Made by a program: the position numbers and the translations under genes. A DNA stretch of 13,110 nucleotides from a virus. Positions 4,672 through 13,060 of the stretch are shown here, one piece after another. The notes beneath the pieces are model-generated. The model was not told the origin of the DNA. It did no database searches and saw only the letters and a list, made by a program, of their open reading frames with translations. Location: the UHGV virus genome UHGV-0162637; one strand, given 5' to 3'. How positions within the stretch are numbered: position 1 is the first letter of the stretch; every line of letters starts with the position of its first letter.

Positions 4672-5253
4672 ATGAACAACTCATGGTGGCAGGAACTAAT
4701 GCATTTTTTCCTGCAAGGAATGACACTTAAACAGTTGATTCATATGCTAATCATCCTGATCATATTGATTATTGTTATGCCGGTAAGCGTAAAAGAATGG
4801 ATAAACCTGCATAATCCAGAAATCCTTCCTCATTATTGGATGTATTACATCCTGTTGTTCTGCGTTAGCTATGTGCTTAACGGTGTTGTTAATTCCGCTT
4901 ATCACGCTGTGACTGAAAGAATTGAGGTATCCGCTGCTCAGAAGCGCAAATCTAAAGAAGAAAAATATGTGCAAGATTTGTTTGATTCGTTAACTCTTGG
5001 AGAAAGAGCGTATTTGGCATTCGCTGTAGCCGCGAATAACCAGCTAAAGACAGAAAAGGGAAGCCATGAAGCAATCTCATTGCTCGAAAAAGGGCTTCTT
5101 ATTCGGATACCTTCTGCTACTGGATATCCTGAAATCGACCGTTTTGTTATCCCTGAACGCTATAGAAATGAGTGCTACATTAGGTTTGCTGGGAAGAAAG
5201 ACAGCCTTATGGATGAACTTATCGCTCAGGATAAGCATGGCAAAAACAAGTAA
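4672..5253 (+). CDS. sieB: SieB-like superinfection exclusion protein B (193 aa), membrane anchored
   Basis: Only plus-strand gene inside the leftward operon, between ral/orf28 and the N-like gene as sieB is in lambda and P22 (recalled). N-terminal hydrophobic segments then a charged C-terminal domain. AT-rich. Family assignment is from position, size and topology, not alignment. Confidence 0.65.
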   Translation: MNNSWWQELMHFFLQGMTLKQLIHMLIILIILIIVMPVSVKEWINLHNPEILPHYWMYYILLFCVSYVLNGVVNSAYHAVTERIEVSAAQKRKSKEEKYVQDLFDSLTLGERAYLAFAVAANNQLKTEKGSHEAISLLEKGLLIRIPSATGYPEIDRFVIPERYRNECYIRFAGKKDSLMDELIAQDKHGKNK

Positions 5254-5269
5254 TTAGCAAATGAATTTA

Positions 5270-5542
5270 TCATCTCGCCGTCAGTTGTTTTGATTTCCGG
5301 TAGCCTGCCGAGTAAATGGCTACGTTTGGCAGGCAAATACTTCCACTGCATTCTTCTGCCTTCTTGCAGCGAAGGCTTCCGAGTGATGCTGCTTTGTCTG
5401 CTCTGACGCAACCAGAGAGCTTTAACGCAATTTTTCGCGCCAGTGCTTCATTACTGCGTCGCTCGGCAATAAGTTCTGCTCTGCGAGCTTTGTAGCGGCT
5501 TTTTGCCGTACCTTTGGATTCTTTCCAGACAATGGTTACCAT
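5270..5542 (-). CDS. N: N-like transcription antitermination protein (P22 gp24 family), 90 aa
   Basis: ATG at 5542 with AAGGAG 7 nt upstream. Arginine-rich N-terminal motif (GTAKSRYKARRAELIAERR) and C-terminus ...YSAGYRKSKQLTAR resemble P22 gp24 (recalled). First gene downstream of the PL/nutL region. Confidence 0.75.
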   Translation of the reverse strand: MVTIVWKESKGTAKSRYKARRAELIAERRSNEALARKIALKLSGCVRADKAASLGSLRCKKAEECSGSICLPNVAIYSAGYRKSKQLTAR

Positions 5543-5652
5543 GATGGTCTCCTTTAAGTGGCTTTGGCGCATGACGCGTCGAGGTGCTTATCTTCTCGAT
5601 CGCTGTCTTGCAGCTGCAATTCGCGCCATCCCCAAAACCACTCAAGTTCTGG

Positions 5653-5693
5653 TCTCAACGGTTAGGTTGAGAGTTCGTAGATGTTAAAGAGCC
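5653..5693 (-). promoter_or_regulatory. putative nutL (boxA plus boxB hairpin)
   Basis: Minus strand reads GCTCTTTAACA (boxA, matching the rrn/lambdoid boxA consensus) followed 10 nt later by a 7-bp stem (TCTCAAC/GTTGAGA) with loop CTAACC. Located in the leader between PL and the N-like gene. Confidence 0.5.
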
Positions 5694-5729
5694 TGCCAAT
5701 CTGTTCCGTTTGGCTTCCAGTCTCCTGCT

Positions 5730-5810
5730 GATGGCTTAAATTTAAGACTTCTTAATTTGTTGGTCAAGTGTATTTTTGAAGAAAACTTAATTTTATGGGC
5801 GTGAATTTAG
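5730..5810 (-). promoter_or_regulatory. OL/PL region: leftward early promoter with P22-type operator
   Basis: Minus strand has -35 TTGACC (plus 5762-5767), a 17-nt spacer and -10 TAAATT (plus 5739-5744). The palindromic operator AATTTAAGACTTCTTAATTT (5738-5757) carries the TTAAG/CTTAA half-sites of P22 C2 operators and overlaps the promoter. Confidence 0.5.
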
Positions 5811-5832
5811 TTTGTCTTTGATTTTTAACGGG

Positions 5833-5857
5833 AAATAAAAAAGGGGCGAAAGCCCCT
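5833..5857 (-). terminator. intrinsic terminator immediately after the repressor gene
   Basis: Minus strand: TAA stop, then GGGGC-TTTC-GCCCC hairpin followed by TTTTTTATTT. Classic rho-independent terminator. Confidence 0.75.
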
Positions 5858-6507
5858 TAAGGAAGGTTTGCTAGCTTGGCATCAACGACAACGCCAATGA
5901 TTTTACAGTTCCCATTGATTTCAATCATTGGGTATTGTGGATTGAGTGGTTTCAGGAATTTTCTACCGGCATCAATAACTAACTTTTTGAATGTCGCCTC
6001 GTTTTCTCCTTCAAGTTTGGCGACTACCAGCTTTCCATTACGTGGTTCGACTTCTGGGTCGACGAGAATAATCATCCCCTCAGGAATACTCAGTCCTGCC
6101 GGGGCAGTCATTGAATCGCCTTTAACGTCGAGCCAAAAAGAGTCTTCAGAACAATCTACCGTTGTGTCGTACCAGTTATCTATTGCACGCCTATGATATG
6201 GCTCTACAGCTTCCATCCAACATCCTGCGCTTACCCAACTAATTAGAGGATACGAACCTCTTGGATCATGCCTGCTGTGATAGGCAATGTTTGAAAGACT
6301 ATCCTCTCCTTTCAACAGGTAATCAGGGGAGCACTGCAAAGCCTTGGCTAAGGCCAATAGGTTTTCGCCATTGGGCTCAGTTTCAGATCGCTCCCATTGG
6401 GAAATAGCAACATTAGACACGCCAACCATCTTTCCAAGGGCAGCCTGCCTAATCTTGAGTTCTTTTCTGCGAGCGCGAATACGCTCACCCATCAGTTGTG
6501 TATTCAT
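5857..6507 (-). CDS. c2: C2/CI-type prophage repressor (HTH plus S24 LexA-like autopeptidase domain), P22 C2 family
   Basis: 216-aa product MNTQLMGERIRARRKELKIRQAALGKMVGVSNVAISQWERSE...GVVVDAKLANLP matches my recollection of P22 C2 nearly throughout. Divergent from cro across an operator region. Confidence 0.9.
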   Translation of the reverse strand: MNTQLMGERIRARRKELKIRQAALGKMVGVSNVAISQWERSETEPNGENLLALAKALQCSPDYLLKGEDSLSNIAYHSRHDPRGSYPLISWVSAGCWMEAVEPYHRRAIDNWYDTTVDCSEDSFWLDVKGDSMTAPAGLSIPEGMIILVDPEVEPRNGKLVVAKLEGENEATFKKLVIDAGRKFLKPLNPQYPMIEINGNCKIIGVVVDAKLANLP

Positions 6508-6587
6508 AGTTAAGACATCTTAAATAAACTTGACTTAAGATTCCTTTGGTGGATAATTTAAGTGTTCTTTAATTTCGGAGCGAGTCT
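6508..6587. promoter_or_regulatory. OR operator region with PR (and divergent PRM)
   Basis: Three 18-bp P22-type operators: AGTTAAGACATCTTAAAT (6508-6525), a TTAAG-containing site around 6528-6549, and ATTTAAGTGTTCTTTAAT (6556-6573, as I recall for P22 OR1). PR: -35 TTGACT (6530-6535), -10 GATAAT (6552-6557), GGAG SD before cro. Confidence 0.8.
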
Positions 6588-6773
6588 ATGTACAAAAAAG
6601 ATGTTATTGACCACTTCGGAACCCAGCGTGCTGTTGCTAAAGCACTAGGCATTAGCGATGCAGCAGTCTCTCAGTGGAAAGAAGTTATCCCAGAGAAAGA
6701 CGCCTATCGATTGGAAATCGTTACAGCTGGCGCCCTGAAGTATCAAGAAAGTGCTTACCGCCAAGCGGCATAA
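6588..6773 (+). CDS. cro: Cro repressor (P22 Cro family), 61 aa
   Basis: MYKKDVIDHFGTQRAVAKALGISDAAVSQWKEVIPEKDAYRLEIVTAGALKYQESAYRQAA matches P22 Cro as recalled; transcribed rightward from PR. Confidence 0.9.
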   Translation: MYKKDVIDHFGTQRAVAKALGISDAAVSQWKEVIPEKDAYRLEIVTAGALKYQESAYRQAA

Positions 6774-6780
6774 GCAAATT

Positions 6781-6820
6781 GCTCTTTAACAGTTCTGGCC
6801 TTTCACCTCTAACCGGGTGA
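6781..6820 (+). promoter_or_regulatory. putative nutR (boxA plus boxB hairpin)
   Basis: GCTCTTTAACA (6781-6791), identical to the boxA of the putative nutL, followed 11 nt later by hairpin TCACC-TCTAACCG-GGTGA. The loop shares CTAACC with the nutL hairpin loop. Confidence 0.5.
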
Positions 6821-6888
6821 GCAAACATCAGCGGCAAATCCATTGGGTGTGCCGCTATAACTCAATACCAATATAGGAAAATTAACAA

Positions 6889-7185
6889 ATGGCACAAGCA
6901 AGCTACAGCAAGCCAACACAGCGAGAAATTGATCGCGCTGAAACTGATTTACTCATCAACCTGTCAACGCTTACCCAGCGCGGTCTGGCAAAGATGATTG
7001 GCTGTCATGAATCGAAGATAAGCAGAACGGACTGGAGATTTATTGCTTCGGTCTTGTGTGCTTTCGGAATGGCATCAGACATCAGTCCGATTAGCAGGGC
7101 TTTTAAGTATGCGCTTGATGAAATCACAAAGAAAAAATCCCCGGCCGCCACCGAGGATTTTAAGCAAATTGATATGCAATTCTGA
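6889..7185 (+). CDS. cII: CII-like transcriptional activator (lambda CII / P22 C1 family), 98 aa
   Basis: AGGAAA SD; C-terminus ...TKKKSPAATEDFKQIDMQF parallels lambda CII ...TNKKRPAATERSEQIQMEF (recalled); central HTH-like segment; canonical position after cro and nutR. Confidence 0.85.
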   Translation: MAQASYSKPTQREIDRAETDLLINLSTLTQRGLAKMIGCHESKISRTDWRFIASVLCAFGMASDISPISRAFKYALDEITKKKSPAATEDFKQIDMQF

Positions 7186-7217
7186 GGGAATTACTGGATC
7201 AATCCACAGGAGTAATT

Positions 7218-7379: not shown

Positions 7380-8256
7380 GTTAGCTGATTACAGGCATAA
7401 CCCTGTACAACATCAGGAGGCATCCAGTATGGGGTATGTCTCTATACACCGCCAGTTTATGGACAGCAGGCTCTATAAGGACTCTCAGGCAGTACATCTT
7501 TGGCTTCACTTAATCCTCAAGGCTAATCACGAATCTACTGTCGTCAATACGGATATCGGTCCGATAACTGTTGATCGCGGTCAGATGATAACTGGACGCC
7601 CGTCGCTGGTCAGAGAAACATTCATTCCAGACAACAAAGTTCGGAGCTTATTACGGACTTTTGAGTCGAAAGGGATGCTTAATATTTGCTCGATGGGGAA
7701 GAAATTTAGCCTGTTTACAATTGTTAAATATGACGATTTTCAGGCAAAAAATTGTCCAACGGTTGTCCAACGATTGTCCAACGCAACCCCCAGTAATGGC
7801 GCGGCTCTCAGCGGAGATTGTCCAACGGTTGTCCAACGATTGTCCATAAACAATAATATAAATAATATCTCTAATACTGACGTATTAGAGAGTACCGCAG
7901 CAGACAAAAAGTCTGACAAGAAAAAACCTTCCGTTAGCTGTCAGGATGTTGTCGATGCTTACCACGAAATCCTTCCTGAAGCGCCAAGAATCCGCGCACT
8001 GAATGACAAGCGTAAAAACCAGATCCGAACGTTCTGGCGCAAAGCCGGAGTAATAACACGTCAACTTGACGGGCATGGGTTCACGATGCAGGACTGGAGA
8101 AATTATTTGAGCTACGTTGGCGAAAATTGCCGATGGATGTTCGAAGAGCGCCCAAACCATCAACGCGGAACCGTCTGGCACAAAAAGGGATTTGATTTCC
8201 TGCTTAACGATAATACCTACCTGAAAGTTCGTGAGGGTGAACACGATGACCGATAA
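7366..8256 (+). CDS. O: replication initiator protein (lambda O-like), origin iterons embedded in the gene
   Basis: Position after cII; the iteron cluster in mid-gene is translated as the repeat CPTVVQRLSN. AGGAG SD before ATG 7366; an alternative in-frame ATG at 7429 has an AGGAGG SD, so the true start may be 7429. Confidence 0.8.
   Translation: MGVVKLADYRHNPVQHQEASSMGYVSIHRQFMDSRLYKDSQAVHLWLHLILKANHESTVVNTDIGPITVDRGQMITGRPSLVRETFIPDNKVRSLLRTFESKGMLNICSMGKKFSLFTIVKYDDFQAKNCPTVVQRLSNATPSNGAALSGDCPTVVQRLSINNNINNISNTDVLESTAADKKSDKKKPSVSCQDVVDAYHEILPEAPRIRALNDKRKNQIRTFWRKAGVITRQLDGHGFTMQDWRNYLSYVGENCRWMFEERPNHQRGTVWHKKGFDFLLNDNTYLKVREGEHDDR
7753..7880. repeat. lambdoid replication origin: six iterons plus AT-rich region
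   Basis: TTGTCCAACG at 7753, 7764 and 7775, then again at 7818 and 7829, with a variant TTGTCCATAA at 7840 (11-bp periodicity, two clusters 33 bp apart), followed by an AT-rich stretch 7850-7880. Same architecture as lambda ori inside O. Confidence 0.8.
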
Positions 8257-8788
8257 TTTTTATGCGCCGCCCCATAGCATCGAGGCAGAGCAGGCGGTGA
8301 TTGGTGGATTGCTTCTGGATGATGACAGCAGTGAGCGCGTCCAGAAAGTTCTGGCGATGCTGAAGCCTGATTCATTTTACAGCCGACCACACAAAATCCT
8401 TTTCGAAGAAATAACCAGAATGCACCGGGAGCAAAAGCCAGTAGATGGCCTGACGCTTTTCGATGAACTGGAGCGTAAATCGTTAACGGTGTCTGTTGGC
8501 GGTTTTGCTTATATCGCTGAGATCGCAAAGAACACGCCAAGCGCAGCAAACATCGTTGCCTATGCAATGCAGGTTCGTGAAACCGCAATGGAACGCTACG
8601 CCATCAACCGCATGACTGAAGCGACGGAATTGCTCTATCTCACAGTAAAAGCCGCCGGTGTGTGGGCGGGTGGCATTGAAACACCTTCGGTGGAAACTCC
8701 ATCGGAAGGTTCAAAATTTTTTGGTTTTGATATGGATAACGAATTCATCAGTGGTTTTGATGTAGGAGCATGGGGAAAATTACTCTGA
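8246..8788 (+). CDS. DnaB-family replicative helicase, N-terminal domain only (truncated, likely non-functional fragment)
   Basis: ATG 8246 with GAGGG SD, overlapping the O stop. Residues PPHSIEAEQAVIGGLLLD...SVGGFAYIAEIAKNTPSAANIVAYA align with the E. coli DnaB N-terminal domain (recalled). Similarity ends after about 140 aa and the ORF stops at 181 aa; the RecA-like ATPase domain is absent. Confidence 0.7.
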   Translation: MTDNFYAPPHSIEAEQAVIGGLLLDDDSSERVQKVLAMLKPDSFYSRPHKILFEEITRMHREQKPVDGLTLFDELERKSLTVSVGGFAYIAEIAKNTPSAANIVAYAMQVRETAMERYAINRMTEATELLYLTVKAAGVWAGGIETPSVETPSEGSKFFGFDMDNEFISGFDVGAWGKLL

Positions 8789-9690
8789 TGGCTAAAAATG
8801 AATTTAAACCATTTGCAACTGGCTCTGGTGCTAACGTAACAACTCAGACAGACTGGGAATCATTACCTGTCCTATCTGCTGGCTTTACATCGGGGAAGGC
8901 ATCAAGTGCTCAGGTGAACAAAGGTCTGAGGCAAGGAACGGCAATGGCGGCTGCTGTGGGGCAGTTTATCGCAGATAATACCAGTGAGGATGTGAAAGAT
9001 AATGGTGATATTGCGGGGCTCTCTGCGCAATTAGCGAGTGCGGTAGAGCAGGCTGCAACAGGACGGCTTATTGGTGTTCGCACAATAACGACATCCGGGA
9101 CTTATACGCCAACCCCAGGAACGAAAAGCATTATTGTTGAAGTCCAAGGCGCAGGCGGAGGAGGGGGCGGGGTTGGTACAACTAACTCTACCAGTGTTGC
9201 AGTTGGGTGTGGAGGGGGAGGTGGCGCCTACGCTAAATCCCGTATCACCAATTTAGACTCAGCATATACTGTAACCATTGGAGCTGGTGGAGCTGGTGGG
9301 GTTAACGGTAATGGAGGAAACGGTGGTGGATCTTCTTTCGGATCTATAACCGCTGGCGGTGGATTTGGTGGTGGTTCAGGAAATGGGGTACCTCCTATTA
9401 TTCAGAACTCACCAGGAATTCCTATAGCATCCGGAGGTAATATTTTAAATCTCTCTGGAGAGAATCCAACTATTGGCATGGCTATATCGACTAGCTCTAT
9501 CATCTCTGGTGGCGGAGGTAATAGTCCATTAGGTGTGGGTGGTAATCCACACGGCTCAGCGGGTATCGGTGTATTGCCGACTGGTTTCGGGGCTGGGGGC
9601 GGTGGGGCTAACGCATATGTGAATAATGCCACCCAATATAACGGAGCCGCCGGTGGTAATGGTATTGTTCTTATCTGGGAGTATGCATGA
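8788..9690 (+). CDS. glycine-rich protein (about 300 aa), possibly phage tail-fibre-like; function unknown
   Basis: Long intact ORF; ATG 8788 overlaps the stop of the helicase fragment (TGATG), with an alternative in-frame ATG at 8770. Non-glycine-rich N-terminal region of about 130 aa, then poly-Gly and GxGG tracts to the C-terminus ...GIVLIWEYA. Family assignment is tentative. Confidence 0.65.
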   Translation: MAKNEFKPFATGSGANVTTQTDWESLPVLSAGFTSGKASSAQVNKGLRQGTAMAAAVGQFIADNTSEDVKDNGDIAGLSAQLASAVEQAATGRLIGVRTITTSGTYTPTPGTKSIIVEVQGAGGGGGGVGTTNSTSVAVGCGGGGGAYAKSRITNLDSAYTVTIGAGGAGGVNGNGGNGGGSSFGSITAGGGFGGGSGNGVPPIIQNSPGIPIASGGNILNLSGENPTIGMAISTSSIISGGGGNSPLGVGGNPHGSAGIGVLPTGFGAGGGGANAYVNNATQYNGAAGGNGIVLIWEYA

Positions 9691-9866
9691 TGAAATATGC
9701 ATTGGTAGAAAATGATGTTGTGATTAACGTTATATTATGGAACGGCGATGGAAAACAATACGATGATTATCTCTGTATAAAGCTTGACGACAATAGCGTT
9801 GTTGGTGTTGGGTATACATATTCAGAGGGTAGGTTTTTGCCCCCTGAATATATTGATGAATTATAG
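9687..9866 (+). CDS. hypothetical small protein (59 aa) coupled to the glycine-rich gene
   Basis: ATG overlaps the stop of the glycine-rich ORF (ATGATGA); product MMKYALVENDVVINVILWNGDGKQYDDYLCIKLDDNSVVGVGYTYSEGRFLPPEYIDEL. Its 3' end overlaps the convergent acyltransferase stop by 6 nt. Below the ORF-track size cut-off. Confidence 0.35.
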   Translation: MMKYALVENDVVINVILWNGDGKQYDDYLCIKLDDNSVVGVGYTYSEGRFLPPEYIDEL

Positions 9867-10955
9867 TGGTGAAATATTTTTACTCATTATTAGTCTCCCT
9901 GTTCTTATAAATTTCTTTTCTACATATCTATATGATAAATCAGAAAAGACAACTAGCAAAAGAATGAAAGCGAAGAAGTATATAACTTTGTTTTCGTAAA
10001 TGACGGTGTTAAGGGAGAGTTTGTTCAAAACCTCCCTTGTTACATGTAGTAATGGTAAATGGCAAAGATAAATGCTATAAGATCTATCCCCAATCCAGTC
10101 CAGCATTTTATATGCTGGATTATCTTTTTTATCTACCACACCACCACTAATAAAACATAGAAATAATAATGCACCAGCAAAACCAATCGCAGGTAATGTC
10201 AATCTATAGTTAAAGTGCTGAGGGGCAACGAGTAAAACAAAAATGCAAACTATAATAAAAAATAGTCTTGTGCATTTATTGCTTACATAACACTTGCTTC
10301 CAGTTATGAATATAATTGCTCCCAGAAAGAATGCTTGTGGTCTAATCCACCAACCAATGGATTGATAGTACATTTGAGTTACTGGCAGGAAAGATGCAAT
10401 AGCTACTATGAATATGAAAATAATCGTCAGATTTTTCCTGTTAAAGAGCAGCATGATTGCCGCAATTATAGCATACAGTTGCCATTCCAAAGATAGAGAC
10501 CAGGTCACCGCATTCATTTGGTCACAATCATTTGCTGTTACTGCGCACCTATAGAAGTGGATATTAGAATAACCAAGTAGGGATGTATATAACGTAGTGA
10601 ATGATTTAAGAGGTGAAACACCCCAAGAAGGTTGCATAAAATAAGAGATTATTATACAGATGGTGCCCCATACAAGTAAGCATGGGGCTAGCCTAAATAT
10701 TCTTTTAGATAAAAATAATAAAAATATTTTAGTTGTTCTGCCGGTTTTTTTTATTTCCCCAGTTAAGCTTTTAGCCATCAAATATCCAGATATAGCCAAA
10801 AATATATCAACTCCAGCCCAATAATTAACGTAATTAAAACTGCTCAAATACCAATCTGGCGAAGGTAATCTATTTCTATAATGTTGTAGAATAACCATTA
10901 TTATGGCTACCGCCCTTAGCGCTTGAATGTCAAGGTTTTTATTATTTAGGGTCAT
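9861..10955 (-). CDS. acyltransferase family 3 integral membrane protein (O-antigen acetylase-like, Oac/OafA type)
   Basis: 364-aa polytopic membrane protein with the conserved N-terminal motif LDIQALRAVAIIMVILQHY and many hydrophobic segments. Visibly AT-rich compared with flanking DNA. Lies at the prophage/host boundary where P22- and Sf6-like phages carry O-antigen modification genes (recalled). Confidence 0.85.
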   Translation of the reverse strand: MTLNNKNLDIQALRAVAIIMVILQHYRNRLPSPDWYLSSFNYVNYWAGVDIFLAISGYLMAKSLTGEIKKTGRTTKIFLLFLSKRIFRLAPCLLVWGTICIIISYFMQPSWGVSPLKSFTTLYTSLLGYSNIHFYRCAVTANDCDQMNAVTWSLSLEWQLYAIIAAIMLLFNRKNLTIIFIFIVAIASFLPVTQMYYQSIGWWIRPQAFFLGAIIFITGSKCYVSNKCTRLFFIIVCIFVLLVAPQHFNYRLTLPAIGFAGALLFLCFISGGVVDKKDNPAYKMLDWIGDRSYSIYLCHLPLLHVTREVLNKLSLNTVIYENKVIYFFAFILLLVVFSDLSYRYVEKKFIRTGRLIMSKNISPL

Positions 10956-11887
10956 GCTATACTCATCTTATTTAAGAATAAATATTAGATGGTAATCATA
11001 ACCTACCATCAGCTTGCTTTCATTGCCTGGAGCATGATTGTGGCAAAAAATTAGCGCAAAAAAAACTCAAAACTGGCGAAGGTGTCGATTCGTCTTGCGC
11101 TAATGTTCTGTGCCATTTTTGTGTCACACGCAGTTTGACACCTTAGATCATTTTCAATCATGTACCATCAACTTCATTAGTGTGAATGCGGAGATGGCCT
11201 TTATAAACAGTTAGTTATGCGTGATTCTGCTAATTCGTAATGCGAAGGTCATGTGACGTTACCGTCAATCCAGTCCGCCCACCACTGCATCATTTTTCTG
11301 CGCTTAACGTAGCGGATGTCTCACTATCACACGGTGATGGTCCATTACTGCTTTGTAGAATGGATAGAGAACTGAGGATAAAAAGATATCCCAAAACCCA
11401 AAATCTCATCTTTAGGATTTGCAGAAAGGTAGGCGTGAACAGATACCTACACATGAAGACGGAGCTAGTCCAGATGTGATATTTGTGGTGATCACATACA
11501 TCATCAACGATGCTCGTTATGGTGAGTTTGATGACTACCCGCTGAAGTGAAAATTGTGTTGTGTACCAAATTGCGTACCAAACTAAAATCACAAATCATG
11601 AAACCCTTGTTCATGGCGGTTCTCAGGGGTGTTTCGCGTAATCGTGAAACAAAAAGGTAGATTGTTGCTTACCGTCATTCATCATTAGGTTAAATCCGTT
11701 ATTTCTGCTGTCTGCCAGAGTATCAAATATCACCGTGCTAATCAGCTTTAGCGCCACAATTTGGCAGCGAGTGGCAACAGATCATGTCAGATAAAAATGA
11801 GAGGGTAGTCACATTTTCTTGCACTTTATTCCAGCCAGTTCATAAGTATTTCCGTAAAAAGAACAGCTATTTGAAACTCCTGAGGGT

Positions 11888-13060
11888 TTGCTGTTGAAAC
11901 GCCGTCTTATTATTGCTGCTTCTTTGTTCGTTTTTAACTTATCGTCTGGTTTTGCGGCGGAAAACATTCCTTTTTCACCTCAGCCTCCAGAGATTCATGC
12001 CGGGTCCTGGGTATTGATGGATTACACCACCGGTCAGATCCTCACCGCGGTTAATGAGCATCAACAGCGCAATCCCGCCAGCCTGACAAAGCTGATGACG
12101 GGTTATGTCGTGGATCGCGCTATCGATAGTCATCGCATTACGCCAGACGATATTGTCACCGTGGGGCGCGATGCGTGGGCGAAAGATAATCCGGTGTTTG
12201 TCGGTTCTTCACTGATGTTTTTGAAAGAGGGCGATCGCGTATCGGTACGTGATTTAAGCCGTGGTTTAATTGTGGATTCTGGAAATGACGCTTGTGTTGC
12301 TCTGGCTGACTATATTGCCGGTGGGCAACGGCAGTTTGTTGAAATGATGAACAACTATGCCGAGAAGCTGCATCTCAAGGATACGCATTTTGAAACAGTG
12401 CATGGTCTGGATGCACCTGGCCAGCATAGCTCGGCTTATGATTTAGCTGTGCTTTCTCGCGCTATCATCCACGGCGAGCCCGAGTTTTATCATATGTACA
12501 GTGAGAAAAGTCTCACCTGGAACGGTATCACCCAGCAAAACCGTAACGGGTTGTTGTGGGATAAAACCATGAATGTTGACGGCCTGAAAACGGGTCATAC
12601 TTCTGGTGCCGGGTTTAATCTCATTGCTTCGGCTGTAGATGGGCAGCGTCGTCTCATTGCAGTGGTAATGGGGGCTGACAGTGCAAAAGGTCGTGAGGAA
12701 GAGGCAAGAAAATTACTGCGTTGGGGGCAACAAAACTTTACTACGGTGCAAATTTTGCACCGTGGGAAAAAGGTCGGAACGGAACGCATCTGGTATGGCG
12801 ATAAAGAAAATATCGACCTGGGAACGGAACAAGAGTTCTGGATGGTGCTACCGAAAGCCGAAATTCCACATATCAAAGCCAAATATACCCTTGATGGTAA
12901 AGAGCTCACCGCGCCAATTAGCGCCCATCAGCGGGTAGGGGAAATTGAACTTTACGACCGTGATAAACAGGTGGCGCACTGGCCGCTGGTTACCCTGGAA
13001 TCTGTCGGGGAAGGCGGCATGTTTTCCCGCCTGAGTGATTATTTCCACCATAAGGCCTGA
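11888..13060 (+). CDS. dacD: D-alanyl-D-alanine carboxypeptidase DacD (penicillin-binding protein 6b)
   Basis: 390-aa product with signal peptide and the SxxK (ASLTK), SGN and KTG motifs of class-C low-molecular-weight PBPs; matches E. coli DacD as recalled. The start is a TTG at 11888, so the exact start is uncertain. Confidence 0.9.
   Translation: MLLKRRLIIAASLFVFNLSSGFAAENIPFSPQPPEIHAGSWVLMDYTTGQILTAVNEHQQRNPASLTKLMTGYVVDRAIDSHRITPDDIVTVGRDAWAKDNPVFVGSSLMFLKEGDRVSVRDLSRGLIVDSGNDACVALADYIAGGQRQFVEMMNNYAEKLHLKDTHFETVHGLDAPGQHSSAYDLAVLSRAIIHGEPEFYHMYSEKSLTWNGITQQNRNGLLWDKTMNVDGLKTGHTSGAGFNLIASAVDGQRRLIAVVMGADSAKGREEEARKLLRWGQQNFTTVQILHRGKKVGTERIWYGDKENIDLGTEQEFWMVLPKAEIPHIKAKYTLDGKELTAPISAHQRVGEIELYDRDKQVAHWPLVTLESVGEGGMFSRLSDYFHHKA

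Follow-up and report, generated by a model that had tools for sequence, protein, structure and literature searches.

The N leader of a deleted prophage very probably carries a phage 21-type nutL site, with a matching nutR beyond cro

The DNA analyzed here, referred to throughout as the window, is a 13,110-nucleotide stretch of the virus genome UHGV-0162637, and it contains the immunity region of a prophage. The cI-type repressor gene lies on the minus strand at 5857..6507, where Pfam recognizes an HTH_3 and a Peptidase_S24 domain and where phage 21 is annotated with a "LexA-like repressor." On the plus strand it is flanked by cro at 6588..6773, a member of the P22_Cro family (Pfam PF14549, 96.9 bits), and then by cII at 6889..7185 (Pfam Phage_CII, 114.5 bits). 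A consensus scan placed the leftward promoter pL on the minus strand at 5739..5767 (−35 TTGACC, 17-nt spacer, −10 TAAATT), with a start at about 5732. The same scan placed pR on the plus strand at 6530..6557 (−35 TTGACT, 16-nt spacer, −10 GATAAT), the best match in the window at 10/12. pR falls within the set of OR operators annotated in phage 21, and the mEp235 and HK629 records annotate it as a promoter. An operator-like palindromic 14-mer, TTAAGACTTCTTAA, was found at 5742-5755 and is repeated at 6510-6523 (TTAAGACATCTTAA), where phage 21 has its annotated OL1 and first OR operator, respectively. We also noted a weaker operator-like copy at 5776-5798. With the nut sites described below, the region has the canonical layout, pL-nutL-N to the left and pR-cro-nutR-cII to the right.

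A motif scan of the window found an exact boxA, GCTCTTTAACA, on the minus strand at 5692-5682, about 40 nt into the pL transcript and at the position annotated as boxA-L in the phage 21 record OL657228. Beyond this boxA come a 9-nt spacer, TCTACGAAC (5673..5681, minus strand), and then boxB (5653..5672, minus strand), which folds into a 7-bp stem (TCTCAAC/GTTGAGA) closed by a CUAACC hexaloop and is the stem-loop annotated as "nutL" in phage 21. The preliminary description of this DNA had placed nutL at 5653-5693; the site is indeed there, but that span runs one base too far, since boxA begins at 5692.

The right-hand site, nutR, is built in the same way on the plus strand. Its boxA, again an exact GCTCTTTAACA and annotated as boxA-R in phage 21, occupies 6781..6791, 8 nt past the cro stop codon. 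An 11-nt spacer, GTTCTGGCCTT, separates it from boxB at 6803..6820, where a TCACCT/GGGTGA stem carries the CUAACC hexaloop of the phage 21 "nutR" stem-loop. A seventh pair, U.G between 6802 and 6821, can form, giving a stem of 6 to 7 bp. The two boxA copies, 5692-5682 (minus) and 6781-6791 (plus), lie 1,088 nt apart in mirror layout, which bears out the preliminary description in its claim that the same boxA stands on both sides of the immunity region. Its further description of the right-hand loop as containing CTAACC proved understated, as both loops are one and the same CUAACC hexaloop. When one mismatch to GCTCTTTAACA was allowed, the window held 4 matches against 0.27 expected, a number reached in none of 200 shuffles.

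A third exact GCTCTTTAACA, at 10449-10439 on the minus strand, sits on the sense strand inside the Acyl_transf_3 open reading frame, where it encodes L-L-F-N. We rejected it as a nut site, as it is intragenic and has neither a hairpin nor a promoter context; lacking a hairpin after it and a promoter-proximal position, it probably arose by chance in an AT-rich gene. A second repeated element, the 11-nt direct repeat AGTTCTGG(T/C)CT, adjoins both boxB hairpins (5645-5655 and 6791-6801, plus strand). In nutR it forms the boxA-boxB spacer, and in nutL it would be transcribed as the complement just 3′ of boxB. As an additional nut element it was also rejected in favor of chance, about 7 such 10/11 matches being expected per 1.3-kb region, although its placement is curious despite the chance-level match count.

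Folding of both leaders, which the preliminary description had proposed as a check, gave stable hairpins at nutL and nutR. The nutL 20-mer, TCTCAAC-CTAACC-GTTGAGA, folds at −7.3 kcal/mol (z −5.8), with none of 200 shuffles as good, and the hairpin is retained in the minimum free energy (MFE) fold of its 56-nt context and in that of the entire 208-nt pL leader. The nutR hairpin, (T)TCACCT-CTAACC-GGGTGA(G) at 6802/6803-6820/6821, likewise folds at −7.3 kcal/mol (z −2.6) and is retained in the MFE folds of its 56-nt context and of the 127-nt cro-cII interval. The overall fold energies of the 56-nt contexts were ordinary relative to shuffles (z about −0.5), as is expected for a short protein-binding hairpin, and thermodynamics alone is not proof of function. 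The case for nut function is carried instead by the homology and covariation evidence. Searching the entire window against Rfam at E≤1 produced a single match, a chance-level snoRNA at 6702-6766, and none at the nut sites; this result has no bearing either way on the nut sites.

The rest of the pL leader is also structured. From the nutL boxB to the N start, positions 5545-5645 on the minus strand form a long, almost unbroken helix in which CUUGAGUGGUUUUGGGG pairs with CCAAAGCCACUUAAAG, extending to immediately 5′ of the Shine-Dalgarno sequence of N. The fold of the 208-nt leader had a z score of −3.8, and none of 200 shuffles was as good. The helix resembles the structure of the lambda N leader, which is processed by RNase III and controls N translation and autoregulation.

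The N antiterminator gene itself lies at 5270..5542 on the minus strand and encodes a 90-residue protein starting MVTIV. A strong Shine-Dalgarno sequence, AAGGAG, is present at 5556-5551, 6 nt before the ATG. The protein scores 63 bits against the Pfam N_peptide family (PF25694; cutoff, 27.9), with residues 4 to 90 of 90 aligned to profile positions 4 to 100 of 100. A longer form starting at 5572 (100 residues) was considered and rejected, as it has no Shine-Dalgarno sequence whereas AAGGAG precedes the ATG at 5542, and the annotations of phage 21, mEp235, and HK629 all use the MVTIV start. Residues 8 to 29, ESKGTAKSRYKARRAELIAERR, match PDB entry 1NYB chain A, "Probable regulatory protein N," at 22 of 22 positions, and this was the only PDB match. 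As it is cited in PMC6061696, the work of Cilley and Williamson (2003) identifies 1NYB as the phi21 N peptide in complex with boxB RNA, and where PMC12550061 cites the same study, the phi21 boxB is described as known for its CUAACC hexaloop. Given the 22/22 match and the CUAACC loop, both the RNA loop and the peptide that recognizes it are unchanged here.

The first 64 residues of the protein, including the arginine-rich RNA-binding peptide, are identical to those of phage 21 N (N21), in agreement with the preliminary assignment of 5270-5542 to an N-like gene. That label was too loose, for this is a specific and structurally characterized phage 21 specificity class. The last 26 residues, CSGSICLPNVAIYSAGYRKSKQLTAR, are unrelated to the corresponding tail of phage 21 N (35 C-terminal amino acids). 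The N protein of HK629, which also has 90 residues, is 97% identical over its full length, C terminus included. In mEp235, where a Nun-like gene comes after the N gene, the C terminus of N is of a third kind, and all three types have the 64 N-terminal residues conserved. At the DNA level the N gene is mosaic, with a joint at 5351, where identity to phage 21 begins; its last 26 codons (5270-5350, minus strand) belong to the HK629/CP-933V type. The C-terminal region may contact RNA polymerase, by analogy with lambda N. Because the 26 C-terminal residues are unrelated to those of N21, it is from the HK629 homologue, and not from N21 itself, that activity of the protein is expected. The gp24 proteins of P22 and phage L similarly share a conserved N-terminal part and have unrelated C-terminal segments of 25 to 35 amino acids, yet they are functionally interchangeable (PMC8022706).

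We compared positions 5200-7200 with a phage collection by megablast, which returned 326 records. Over 5351-7200, the identity to Escherichia phage 21 (OL657228; genome announcement, PMC9119081), lambda imm21, lambda h434 imm21, and DE3 is 98.2%. From 5351 onward, identity to mEp235 and phiv205-1 is 99.2 to 99.4%, and HK629 (JQ182735) is 97.7% identical over 5274-7200. The control region of OL657228 was annotated by hand and includes the pL start, OL1-3, boxA-L, nutL, the OR operators, boxA-R, nutR, tR1, and pRE. Two alignments, one at the left and one at the right site, gave a constant offset of 3850 between the phage 21 locus and the window, so that the annotated features land on the proposed nut elements: boxA-L at 5685-5692 (minus), the nutL stem-loop at 5653-5672 (minus), boxA-R at 6781-6788 (plus), and the nutR stem-loop at 6803-6820 (plus). 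The annotated pL transcription start (locus 1882) falls at 5732.

Alignment of the sites themselves, suggested in the preliminary description, showed that nutR and its surroundings equal phage 21 over 100 nt without a difference. At nutL, neither boxA nor boxB departs from phage 21, and mEp235 and HK629 have this boxA as well; the spacer, TCTACGAAC, differs at 2 bases from the TCGACGGAC of phage 21, HK629, and mEp235. The mirror arrangement around cI and cro that had been proposed is likewise the one annotated in phage 21, with boxA-L, nutL, boxA-R, and nutR at homologous positions.

To see how these elements vary, we scanned IMG/VR for GCTCTTTAACA-N(10-26)-CTAACC with the stem left unconstrained and recovered 120 loci, many of which have one plus and one minus copy about 1.1 kb apart, the mirror layout of the window. 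Among the 48 nutL-type copies, the 14 nt of the 7-bp stem were invariant, while the 9-nt spacer occurred in five variants (six with that of the window) that differ at four variable positions. The window spacer, TCTACGAAC, was not seen among the other nutL-type copies in the IMG/VR sample. The nutR-type copies had either the stem of the window or a variant, in which a G-to-A change gives a C.A mismatch and is accompanied by two new pairs at the stem base. Chance co-occurrences of boxA and CTAACC in unrelated contexts had stems of only 0 to 3 bp. The scan also recovered P22-type sites of the form GCTCTTTAACA-acattgca-GCGCTGACAAAGCGC (loci L007, L013, and L095).

Between the nutL and nutR stems, compared together with the nutR variant from viral contigs, six of the seven pairs are changed on both sides with pairing kept. 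Stem cells formed standard pairs in 95% of cases, versus 17 to 48% when the 3′ partners were slid by 1 to 3 columns; since the set comprises three distinct stems only, this covariation is supportive and its statistics are thin. These comparisons support the view that selection keeps the boxB stem while the spacer drifts.

Each of the sequence-level features that define the phage 21 nut class was looked for and found here. We therefore consider it almost certain (a probability of roughly 95%) that nutL in the window is a phage 21-type nut site, part of a phage 21 immunity and antitermination module carried in a prophage. As such it is an ordinary feature that has already been described.

If the site works as its relatives do, RNA polymerase starting from pL (about 5732) would transcribe boxA (GCUCUUUAACA in the RNA), the 9-nt spacer, and boxB, which lie some 40 and 60 nt from the start. 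N (5542-5270) would then bind boxB by way of the arginine-rich helix at its N terminus (residues about 8 to 29), and the host NusB/NusE(S10) dimer would bind boxA. NusA and NusG would complete a looped RNA-protein complex riding on the polymerase, which would thereafter ignore downstream terminators. The same events would take place at nutR (6781-6820) on the pR transcript, past cro. We infer Nus-factor binding and antitermination itself from the biology of lambda, P22, and phage 21.

Several structures could be the targets of such a complex. On the minus strand, terminator-like hairpins are present at 4269-4248 (the end of ral), 3600-3583, and 3562-3543, and all three are candidates. On the right, the candidate is an inverted repeat, AGCGGCA...TGCCGCT, at 6830..6856 (plus strand) between nutR and cII, which is present as a hairpin in the fold. 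In OL657228, tR1 is annotated at a position equivalent to about 6868-6871, and the hairpin, standing in the place of tR1, is a putative terminator. Two further elements were noted near cII. A strong terminator-like hairpin with a 12-bp stem and a T run, at 7134-7161 on the minus strand, is antisense to the 3′ end of cII and corresponds to an HK629 feature described as "similar to lambda oop RNA," and a pRE-type CII site, TTGC-N6-TTGC, lies at 6898-6911 on the minus strand.

The prophage around the module is incomplete. The pL operon comprises N, ral, an ERF recombinase gene, and an Ea22-like gene, with sieB oppositely oriented between N and ral. sieB (superinfection exclusion B, Pfam PF14163; 4672-5253, plus strand) is convergent with N, and because its stop codon is only 17 nt from that of N, pL readthrough transcripts would be antisense to it. 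Rightward of cII come a replication gene of the O type and an open reading frame (8231-8788) for a DnaB-like helicase with the N-terminal domain only (185 amino acids). Similarity of the DNA to lambdoid prophages breaks off at about 8638 and picks up again with a glycine-rich tail-fibre-like gene (8770-9690), a small open reading frame, Acyl_transf_3, a 2851-type att, and dacD. The tail of the helicase frame runs into the tail-fibre-like gene, marking a deletion joint. The Acyl_transf_3 gene (9861-10955, minus strand), of the O-antigen acyltransferase type, stands at the prophage end, and within 9861-11888 there is a match to the 2851-type attachment site beside dacD that is used by the Stx phages 1717 and 2851 and also by mEp234. 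None of the complete E. coli genomes in the collection contained the whole window, the best coverage being 45%.

The nin/Q, lysis, and morphogenesis (head and tail) genes having been lost, the prophage is defective and little is left for N to act on in the right arm; the deletion may also have released the nut module from selection in this genome. It is accordingly possible, although we put it at clearly less than even odds, that the nut sites are intact but functionless relics that persist only because the deletion is recent. The helicase frame with its N-terminal domain only, the end of homology at about 8638, and the absence of Q, lysis, and morphogenesis genes in the direction of pR all point that way. 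Set against this, N, cI, cro, and cII are full-length open reading frames, boxA and boxB are without mutation, and genes of the pL operon (ral, ERF, and others) remain; the window begins inside the prophage, whose left end lies outside it. The question moreover concerns the present use of the sites rather than their identity, and a relic is compatible with a phage 21-type nutL. Overall, the N/nut module in this genome has probably become a relic or kept only part of its use.

We also considered whether boxB might serve mainly in translational autoregulation of N, or as the target through which a competing phage brings about exclusion or termination with a Nun-like factor. mEp235, with the same nut sites, has a Nun-like gene beside N, and the pL leader helix past boxB (z −3.8) reaches the N ribosome-binding region. 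HK022 Nun targets lambda-type boxB, whereas nothing here ties Nun to a boxB of the CUAACC type; moreover, the window has no Nun gene, and N is followed by sieB in the opposite orientation. Both roles would in any case be added uses of a nut site and not alternatives to it, and we think it very unlikely that either is the main one.

Only slight credence can be given to a set of more speculative readings. The N/nut pair may have been domesticated as an SOS-inducible switch, the deletion having fused cro-cII-O-helicase′ to the tail-fibre-like gene so that the remaining prophage genes are driven for the benefit of the host. Alternatively, the combination of an HK629-type N C terminus with a nutL spacer specific to the window may reflect altered requirements for Nus factors or RNA polymerase. 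Weaker still than these two is the idea that the boxA at 10449-10439 may be a working Nus-factor site in the acyltransferase mRNA.

A chance pairing of the hairpin with the boxA 11-mer, or a generic structure of the leader, is effectively refuted as an explanation and has a negligible likelihood: the 11-mer does occur in an unrelated gene (10449-10439), short hairpins are common, and the context energies are unremarkable, but the window has mirror copies at canonical positions whose loops are identical and whose stems covary, the sites are identical to annotated phage 21 sites, the N peptide matches that of a solved complex, and the chance pairs of boxA and CTAACC found elsewhere are without stems.

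The identification of nutL as a phage 21-type site fixes the immunity and antitermination type of the prophage as imm21-like, confirms the call of the N gene with its start at 5542 (MVTIV), and places pL, pR, nutL, and nutR precisely. It also supplies a further natural example of an N protein that keeps its RNA-binding, NusA-side N terminus while its C-terminal part is swapped by mosaic recombination, and of nut spacers that drift while boxA and boxB stay fixed. Beyond correct annotation, its significance is small.

Antitermination in lambda follows the same logic, with the order boxA, spacer, boxB, nutL between pL and N, and nutR after cro, and lambda N has an N-terminal arginine-rich motif like that of the N protein in the window. 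The elements themselves differ. In the annotations of mEp235 and HK629, the lambda boxA is CGCTCTTA(M), whereas that of the window is the rrn-type GCTCTTTAACA. The lambda boxB has a GAAAA or GAAGA pentaloop with a GNRA-like tetraloop fold, and, from imm21 hybrid genetics, the N proteins of lambda and phage 21 are not known to be interchangeable. The CUAACC hexaloop of phi21 adopts a GNRA-like (UMAC-type) loop fold (PMC12550061). P22 shares its boxA 11-mer with the window, the cro gene of which belongs to the P22_Cro family, but the P22 boxB has a GACAA pentaloop and not CUAACC (PMC12550061). The arginine-rich motif of P22 gp24 also differs in sequence from that of N in the window.

Phage 21 and P22 both carry an rrn-type boxA. 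Reading the boxA directly from the rrnB leader of E. coli K-12 MG1655 gave cacTGCTCTTTAACAAttt, in which the boxA, identical to that of the window, adjoins a hairpin. boxA is the binding site of NusB/NusE(S10) (PMC2800207, PMC3177189), and the identity with the rrnB boxA fits that role. The E. coli rrn leaders have the order boxB then boxA and function with no N protein, whereas nut sites have boxA then boxB.

The closest relatives of the module are phage 21 itself and the phages that share its immunity region. A review (PMC12360218) treats phage 21 only for Q21. In HK629 and mEp235, the boxA sites are annotated as "putative Nut boxA" and the nutL spacer is that of phage 21; these two and phiv205-1 are complete phages, whereas the prophage in the window is deleted. 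In phage 21, the nut sites have the same placement relative to pL, N, cI, cro, and cII, but N is followed directly by ral where the window has sieB, and the replication genes of the window are of another type. At the nut/N module, as judged from sequence, the window differs from the type phage 21 only by two spacer bases and the C terminus of N.
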